Shown one piece after another: positions 16,537 through 16,737 of a DNA stretch of 64,000 nucleotides. This DNA is from Escherichia phage Elenatom. Location: sequence record PP925844.1; one strand, given 5' to 3'. A model generated the notes under the pieces. That model was not told where the DNA came from and searched no databases. It worked only from the letters and a program-made list of their open reading frames with translations. The stretch's first letter is position 1; each line of letters opens with the position of its first letter. The position numbers were made by a program, and so were the translations under genes.

Positions 16537-16737
16537 ATGGTACAAAAATTAATGGCACTTGTTAATGCCATAAAAGGTAATAAAAAACGTATAGCTTTTA
16601 CTATTTCTGCTATGATAGGAATTTTACTTTGGAATTTTGTTTTATCGCCAGTTGCTATTGCTCATGGCGTTAGTATTCCAGTAGTTACTCTTGATACATT
16701 CGTAGATTTAGCATTTGCTTTGGTTGGGTTAATTTAA
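16537..16737 (+). CDS. small hydrophobic protein, two predicted transmembrane segments
   Basis: 66-aa plus-strand ORF with AGGAGG Shine-Dalgarno just upstream of the ATG; sits in the dam-primase intergenic region. Confidence 0.5.
   Translation: MVQKLMALVNAIKGNKKRIAFTISAMIGILLWNFVLSPVAIAHGVSIPVVTLDTFVDLAFALVGLI

Follow-up and report, generated by a model that had tools for sequence, protein, structure and literature searches.

A plus-strand gene convergent on the primase gene of T4-like phages encodes a predicted single-span membrane protein and probably has its own late promoter

Results

A protein-coding gene runs against its neighbours at the 3′ end of gene 61

The 64,000-nucleotide (nt) stretch of Escherichia phage Elenatom analysed here (sequence record PP925844.1; hereafter the window) is from a Tequatrovirus (T4-like) genome, and it carries a short plus-strand open reading frame (ORF) next to the 3′ end of gene 61, which encodes the DNA primase. 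The ORF starts with ATG at 16537, ends with TAA at 16735-16737 and encodes a protein of 66 amino acids (aa), MVQKLMALVNAIKGNKKRIAFTISAMIGILLWNFVLSPVAIAHGVSIPVVTLDTFVDLAFALVGLI. No in-frame start lies upstream of this ATG, and a stop codon is found at 16519-16521. The annotated neighbours soc, 56, dam, 61 and 61.1, which were identified via the annotation of phage T4T and with Pfam, are all on the minus strand. A Shine-Dalgarno (SD) sequence, AGGAGG, precedes the ATG with a spacing of 4 nt, the box GATAAATA lies 19 nt 5′ of the ATG, and the ORF and gene 61 meet tail-to-tail with an overlap of 4 nt (16734-16737). An earlier note on this DNA, made from the letters alone, had described a 66-aa plus-strand ORF with an AGGAGG SD among minus-strand genes and a stop codon overlapping that of the convergent primase gene by 4 nt; the coordinates, the strands of the neighbours and the overlap were all verified. 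Compared with its relatives, the region 16400-16800 is 100% identical in Escherichia phages Pinarejo and ECML-123-2 and 95.5% identical in T4. The length of the ORF was dropped as evidence for a gene: plus-strand ORFs of 60-100 aa are frequent nearby in this AT-rich DNA.

The ORF is a genuine protein-coding gene, and its product is under purifying selection. Using tblastn, the protein was matched in 692 phage records, of which 685 cover at least 80% of its length, and a strong SD (AGGAGG, GGAGG or AAGGAG) is present in 14 of 14 lineages; conservation of both the ORF and its SD in related phages, which the earlier note had named as a way of checking the ORF, is thus borne out. Within Tequatrovirus, the ratio of nonsynonymous to synonymous divergence (dN/dS) between the window and T4T is about 0.09 (0.020/0.223), the variable columns fall on codon positions 1, 2 and 3 in the proportion 5:2:13, and 13 variable codons are synonymous only versus 7 that change the amino acid. 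The corresponding codon counts in Mosigvirus are 12 versus 4, with a dN/dS of 0.10 between RB69 and a second member of that genus (L013). In comparisons across genera, synonymous sites have reached saturation, yet the proteins retain 48-68% identity. In a six-frame test, the only frame that is open in all sequences and varies mostly at synonymous sites is that of the ORF; the antisense frame that shares its wobble position gives a partial echo of the coding signal, as expected. In addition, the ORF is kept in phages that lack dam and at about 55% nucleotide identity, with change biased to the third codon position. Selection acts on the peptide itself, as is shown by its purifying selection at saturated synonymous divergence, by the conservation of a strong SD and by its near-invariant residues.

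Two sequences weigh against this reading. In the T6 RefSeq record, ATT replaces the ATG (L004, 1501-1503), and the coding sequence is annotated from Met6. In the evolved phage T4_ev240, the A-run in codons 15-17 has five A instead of six (L026, around 1001-1006), which leads to a premature stop. These lesions may mean that the gene is dispensable in the laboratory, or they may be sequencing errors.

The family is syntenic across ten genera of Tevenvirinae and already catalogued

The protein matches phrog_2024, a family of "unknown function", with E = 8.1e-31, its residues 2-66 aligning to profile positions 1-65 of 65. All subtypes match the same profile with E = 1e-24 to 1e-31 (1e-24 to 1e-28 for the divergent subtypes alone), and a family hidden Markov model (HMM) gives matches of E = 1e-18 to 1e-31 across genera. 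Syntenic homologues, with identity down to 20%, were found in ten genera of Tevenvirinae; besides Tequatrovirus these are Mosigvirus (RB69ORF029w), Gaprivervirus (VR7ORF033w), Dhakavirus (Bp7), Marfavirus, Jiaodavirus, Kanagawavirus, Moonvirus, Gelderlandvirus and Mosugukvirus. The homologue always lies between gene 56 or dam on one side and the 3′ end of gene 61 on the other, in the orientation opposite to these genes, and the annotated neighbours are alike in T4T, RB69, VR7, Bp7, P545, 5N, CIP9, CF1, NP4 and PM2. The tail-to-tail arrangement with gene 61 is found in every lineage examined and the 4-nt overlap in at least 6 genera; other DNA intervenes between the ORF and gene 61 in VR7, Bp7 and 5N. 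No family member was found next to the primase gene in Krischvirus, Slopekvirus, Biquartavirus or Roskildevirus.

The full-length members are 61-69 aa long and have the motif W-N-x4-P-x-A-x3-G-x3-P, followed five positions on by an acidic residue, and all of these features are present in the Elenatom protein. A profile search of 1.8 billion representatives gave 6 matches, all of them family members or fragments. With a broader profile, 83 matches of 41-73 aa were obtained from 5.8 billion proteins; many of these lie on T4-sized contigs, and none of the 83 has a bacterial context of its own. All proteins recovered in these searches belong to T4-like phages. The family is found only in Tevenvirinae of Enterobacterales.

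Annotated proteins of phages G8 and ECML-123-2 have the same sequence as the Elenatom protein (100% identity), and members of the family have been named Dam.1 (phage T4T, HM137666, T4Tp032), RB69ORF029w, RB32ORF030w and VR7ORF033w, or "hypothetical protein" in hundreds of records. The gene is therefore already catalogued (PHROG 2024) and uncharacterised rather than new. The T4 reference record AF158101.6 contains the intact ORF at 17738-17938 without annotating it, an intact orthologue is likewise left unannotated in Edwardsiella phage PEi20 (L025, 1168-1368), and the same holds for JS98 and some T4 isolates. Elsewhere the database labels clash: "Holin" (UniRef/BFVD, phage OE5505), "putative head morphogenesis protein" (T6 RefSeq) and "DNA packaging ATPase" (three Klebsiella phages). 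We found no evidence behind any of these three labels, and no mention of dam.1, ORF029w, ORF030w or T4Tp032 in the literature searched. We also observed that VR7 (L003, NC_014792) has an unannotated second copy of subtype B at 1542-1967 (+), in tandem with VR7ORF033w (family HMM, E = 2e-28); its frame overlaps the 3′ end of gene 61 by about 70 nt, and its C-terminus is possibly altered.

The protein is predicted to span the membrane once

Residues 1-18 form an amphipathic helix followed by KGNKKR. There are five K/R, all in residues 4-18, and no D or E in residues 1-20. Residues 19-42 are strongly hydrophobic, with a 19-residue Kyte-Doolittle mean of 2.0 in the Elenatom protein and of at least 1.76 in 43 of 43 aligned members. 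In the T4/RB69/VR7 subtype, the C-terminal 24 residues (HGVSIPVVTLDTFVDLAFALVGLI here) are hydrophobic, with two Asp among them. In other genera the tail has 19-28 residues with a mean hydropathy of 0.6-1.3 and contains E, H, K or R, as in LPPVTIEHLRTAATLMLGF; it is polar or charged in the Kanagawavirus, Moonvirus, Jiaodavirus and Gelderlandvirus versions, and therefore a second membrane span is not conserved. The earlier note had described two hydrophobic segments. The first of these stands as a conserved transmembrane helix, whereas the second is a property of the T4/RB69/VR7 subtype and not a family-wide span. By the positive-inside rule, the N-terminus would be cytoplasmic and the short tail (23 residues here) would lie at the periplasmic face. 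Taken together, these features indicate one conserved membrane span in the family, likely crossed in a single pass with the N-terminus inside (N-in) and a tail of 19-28 residues outside. In line with this, RB69ORF029w has been listed with one predicted transmembrane segment, 21-41 (Nolan et al. 2006, PMC1524935). A point against a single span is that the C-terminal segment of the T4 subtype, with a Kyte-Doolittle value of 1.9, is hydrophobic enough for a second one.

The AlphaFold2 model built from the 43-sequence alignment has a mean predicted local distance difference test (pLDDT) score of 79.3, with helices at residues 2-12, 16-42 and 52-63 and a loop at 43-51. The model from a shallower alignment agrees with it; over both runs the mean pLDDT is 77-79, the N-terminal helix reaches residue 12 or 14, and the pLDDT of the helix 16-42 block is 83-86. 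The terminal helix 52-63 is amphipathic/hydrophobic. W32, N33 and P38 are invariant, A40, G44 and P48 are conserved in at least 95% of the members, and position 53 is D or E in 41 of 43. These conserved residues gather in the outer half of the helix and in the juxtamembrane loop, and subtype B has an additional Asp within the helix. A membrane-embedded Asn is a classic driver of helix-helix association, and we therefore infer that the protein binds itself or another membrane protein. As read from the sequence, there is no trypsin site after R18, so that the remaining tryptic peptide is a hydrophobic stretch of 48 residues; the missing sites would explain the absence of the protein from standard proteomics.

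The gene probably has its own late promoter

The T4 late promoter consensus is TATAAATA at -13 to -6, with poor conservation of its T at -13 among T4-like phages (Nolan et al. 2006, PMC1524935). The box GATAAATA matches it at 7 of 8 positions, as the earlier note had read it with one mismatch. The core ATAAATA is depleted 4.5-fold in the window, with 9 copies on both strands versus 40.6 ± 6.1 expected from dinucleotide-preserving shuffles. Of these copies, 6 lie 13-30 nt 5′ of an SD and ATG, namely those of soc, e (two tandem boxes), 49 (endonuclease VII), the ORF upstream of rI and the 66-aa ORF itself. Upstream of the 66-aa ORF, ATAAATA is kept in 11 of 14 lineages even though the flanking sequence cannot be aligned, and the perfect TATAAATA is found there in Bp7, P545 and CIP9. 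The binomial probability of such retention is about 2e-8 with a generous AT-rich background, the lineages being related to each other. Within Tequatrovirus, the box persists in three upstream contexts: dam-proximal, with an extra ORF (Yersinia phage fPS-65) and without dam (T6-like). In fPS-65 (L006, 841-1401), where a hypothetical ORF of 186 codons is inserted, the sequence becomes homologous to the window again about 5 nt before the GATAAATA box, and at this junction box, SD and ORF are retained as one module. Plus-strand sigma-70-type matches upstream of the ORF are weak (9/12) and no commoner than in shuffled sequence. Taken together, these indirect results make a T4-type gp55-dependent late promoter very probable for the ORF, with a predicted start near 16523.

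Several points weigh against a late promoter. The box has G, not T, at -13; Moonvirus and Gelderlandvirus carry TTAAATA instead of ATAAATA, and the metagenomic lineage L017 has no ATAAATA nearby. The supplementary list of the promoter HMM of Nolan et al. (PMC1524935) has no late promoter 5′ of RB69ORF029w, and no transcript, ribosome-footprint or peptide data for the ORF were found in the literature searched.

Other sites in the same scan and in the same spacer are of interest in their own right. Three plus-strand copies of ATAAATA (4911-4917, 60639-60645 and 63096-63102) are not followed within about 120 nt by the start of an ORF of 40 or more codons and are candidate late antisense promoters; the copy at 4910-4917 (+) is a perfect TATAAATA. 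Another perfect TATAAATA lies 25 nt 5′ of a 70-codon ORF without a Pfam match (56087-56328, minus strand), which is directly upstream of rI (55781-56071), and this box is probably the late promoter of the rI unit. Many Tequatrovirus genomes have extra DNA between dam and the 66-aa ORF, so that the BLAST match comes in two pieces spanning about 580-955 bp versus 401.

Opposite-strand signals and neighbouring genes

On the minus strand, the first part of the ORF contains a terminator-like hairpin followed by a T-run, and the equivalent site is annotated as a terminator in fPS-65. This hairpin presumably ends gene 61 transcripts, as part of the neighbouring transcription unit and not of the ORF. 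As the hairpin is limited to Tequatrovirus, it does not account for the ORF's conservation, and the idea that the 5′ end of the ORF doubles as a conserved minus-strand terminator was rejected since it holds only in that genus. No plus-strand terminator-like site was found between 16737 and 18000. The coordinates of the features are collected in Table 1.

Two features of the neighbouring genes differ from the relatives. The homing endonuclease gene segF, which lies between soc and 56 in T4, T4T and VR7, is missing in Elenatom, where soc (14756-15001) adjoins 56 (15070-15603). In dam, within 15737-15800 (minus strand), a run of 7 A near 15739-15745 stands against 6 A in T4, T4T and fPS-65; the extra A is a +1 frameshift that gives a Dam of 229 aa instead of 259, with the rest of the C-terminal coding sequence continuing out of frame. 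This may be a real inactivation or a homopolymer sequencing error.

Table 1. Features of the 66-aa ORF and its surroundings (positions in the window)
Feature	Position	Strand	Basis or remark
Late-promoter-like box GATAAATA	16510..16517	+	Read directly; consensus TATAAATA at -13..-6
Shine-Dalgarno AGGAGG	16527..16532	+	Read directly; strong SD in 14/14 lineages
Coding sequence, 66 aa, stop included	16537..16737	+	PHROG 2024 member (Dam.1, RB69ORF029w, VR7ORF033w)
Residues 2-18: amphipathic N-terminal helix and basic cluster KGNKKR, predicted cytoplasmic	16540..16590	+	Charge, AlphaFold
Residues 19-42: predicted family-wide transmembrane helix; W32-N33 at 16630-16635	16591..16662	+	Kyte-Doolittle, AlphaFold, conservation
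Residues 43-66: short C-terminal tail, predicted periplasmic	16663..16734	+	Conservation, hydropathy, AlphaFold
Terminator-like hairpin and T-run, 3′ of gene 61, inside ORF codons 6-12	16542..16571	-	Sequence scan
Gene 61 (DNA primase), convergent on the ORF	16734..17762	-	4-nt overlap

Discussion

We propose that the gene would be transcribed late by the gp55-directed polymerase, with the GATAAATA box about 6 nt upstream of the start, giving an mRNA leader of 12-14 nt that carries the strong SD. The 66-residue product would then insert into the inner membrane as an N-in, single-pass protein and would act by intramembrane association through its W-N/P/G/P face, either with copies of itself or with a partner membrane protein. 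Its output may be that of an accessory factor that modulates a late event at the envelope, for instance the timing of lysis, and not that of a hole-former. The late small membrane protein that the earlier note had put forward is supported by the depletion of ATAAATA in the window, its retention in 11 of 14 lineages and the family-wide hydrophobicity of helix 19-42, and we consider gp55-dependent late transcription together with N-in, single-pass insertion to be quite likely. Modulation of a late envelope event, for example lysis timing, is a tentative functional class that is drawn only from timing, location and motif. More speculatively, and in our view unlikely, the protein could be an overlooked late component of T-even lysis or envelope control, or a transmembrane inhibitor of a host inner-membrane enzyme comparable to phiX174 E, acting via the invariant W-N...P...G...P face.

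Alternatively, the protein could protect the envelope, in superinfection exclusion or anti-defence, by binding, much like Imm or Sp, to an inner-membrane protein of host or phage. Such a factor could well be a small N-in membrane protein with a conserved juxtamembrane motif, and the restriction of the family to Tevenvirinae of Enterobacterales is what would be expected of a host-interaction gene; the family is also absent next to the primase gene in Krischvirus, Slopekvirus, Biquartavirus and Roskildevirus. However, the known T4 exclusion genes, including imm and sp, are early, whereas here the conserved signal is the late box and the sigma-70-type sites are weak. The family profile also detects no related ORF anywhere in the window, which should contain both sp (61.3) and imm provided that its genes are ordered as in T4. 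We thus regard a protection factor as rather unlikely.

A second alternative is a holin- or pinholin-like hole-former, or a membrane-depolarising toxin, that would accumulate late and permeabilise the inner membrane by itself. Like a holin, the protein is small, has at least one transmembrane helix and likely has a late promoter; the second hydrophobic segment of the T4 subtype, with its two Asp, could line a pore, and the OE5505 orthologue is the one labelled "Holin". However, this label is one of several conflicting ones on the same 66-aa protein, and half of the family has a polar or charged second segment. The charged C-terminal domain of holins is lacking: the C-terminus (...DLAFALVGLI) is hydrophobic and acidic without a basic residue or a charged cytoplasmic tail, and the basic cluster is N-terminal. 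Linkage to the endolysin gene is lacking as well, with e at 62183-62674 (62.2 kb), rI at 55781-56071 and replication and nucleotide-metabolism genes as the neighbours of the ORF. Profile similarity was not detected either. No Pfam family, holin families included, matched at E ≤ 10, no NCBIfam model matched, and a PDB sequence search and Foldseek against BFVD and PDB returned nothing beyond family members. A search with the family HMM through the six-frame translation of the window, covering all ORFs of 30 aa or more, recovered only the protein itself, the next best hit having E = 0.21, so there is no paralogue. Homology to the RI antiholin (PF24205) was rejected: a pattern F-x-LSP-x-I-x-A is common to the membrane segments of the two proteins, but hhalign against the RI of the window gave a probability of 0.2%, which points to chance. 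In addition, T4 already has the holin T, the antiholins RI and RIII, and spanins. The holin, antiholin, toxin and exclusion roles suggested in the earlier note thus found no support in these searches, and autonomous hole formation appears improbable.

In a third alternative, the RNA is the main product and the peptide is secondary: a late plus-strand transcript would run antisense through the 61-dam spacer into the 3′ end of gene 61 and, by pairing or by polymerase collision, silence primase and dam read-through RNA. Since no plus-strand terminator-like site was found up to 18000, a late transcript would indeed run antisense into gene 61, and the tail-to-tail layout in every lineage examined, with its 4-nt overlap in at least 6 genera, is compatible with such a role. 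Selection at the protein level, the conserved strong SD and the near-invariant residues argue against it, as does the other DNA between the ORF and gene 61 in VR7, Bp7 and 5N. The earlier note had suggested a transcript antisense to the dam leader. A transcript starting at about 16523 runs away from dam, so this suggestion survives only for read-through RNA coming from gene 61. We therefore consider RNA as the primary product highly improbable; an effect of the RNA could be additional, and transcription of the peptide gene may, as a by-product, affect primase and read-through transcripts by antisense pairing or collision.

Finally, a chance ORF whose conservation comes from minus-strand signals in the intergenic spacer (the gene 61 terminator and dam promoters) is effectively refuted: a minus-strand hairpin does lie within the codons, the T4 reference annotation does omit the ORF and ORFs of such length are common by chance, but the hairpin is limited to Tequatrovirus, the family HMM matches across all genera, and the ORF is retained both where dam is missing and at about 55% nucleotide identity, with substitutions concentrated at third codon positions.

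Among large lytic phages, T4 serves as the reference model, yet the gene, conserved in about a thousand genomes of the T-even type, is missing from AF158101.6, and studies that rely on this annotation, such as transcriptomics, proteomics, ORF libraries and knockout collections, miss it because the record omits the ORF. A late inner-membrane protein could plausibly take part in the timing or inhibition of lysis or in protecting the envelope. If a role in lysis or the envelope is true, adding the gene to the T4 list and making a knockout would be cheap and informative; if there is no phenotype, the outcome is a small annotation correction. On the more speculative reading, an overlooked lysis or envelope component or an inhibitor like phiX174 E, the gene would have gone unnoticed through 60 years of T4 genetics and in modern screens owing to its omission from the reference annotation.

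The closest parallels in gene organisation are the T4 late genes that lie in the early region with a late promoter of their own (soc, e, 49 and the rI unit), in which, as in the 66-aa ORF, (T/A/G/C)ATAAATA precedes the ATG by 13-30 nt and a strong SD lies between the two. Unlike these, the ORF runs against all of its neighbours, converges on gene 61 and has G at -13, and its late expression is predicted from its sequence. In comparison with type I toxin-antitoxin systems, the only overlapping features on the opposite strand are the 3′ end of gene 61 and its terminator, and no dedicated antisense RNA is evident there. The family resembles the holins (T4 gpT of class III; class II pinholins such as S21) in being a small membrane protein that is probably made late, and differs from gpT and S21 in its N-terminal basic domain, its single conserved span, the lack of sequence or HMM similarity and the lack of an adjacent endolysin gene. 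Compared with RI, to which no homology was detected, its predicted periplasmic part is short, 19-28 residues (23 here) versus about 70. It shares with RI, Imm and Sp the plan of a small phage protein that would have an N-in inner-membrane anchor and a periplasmic face, and the rI unit of the window, too, bears a probable late promoter.

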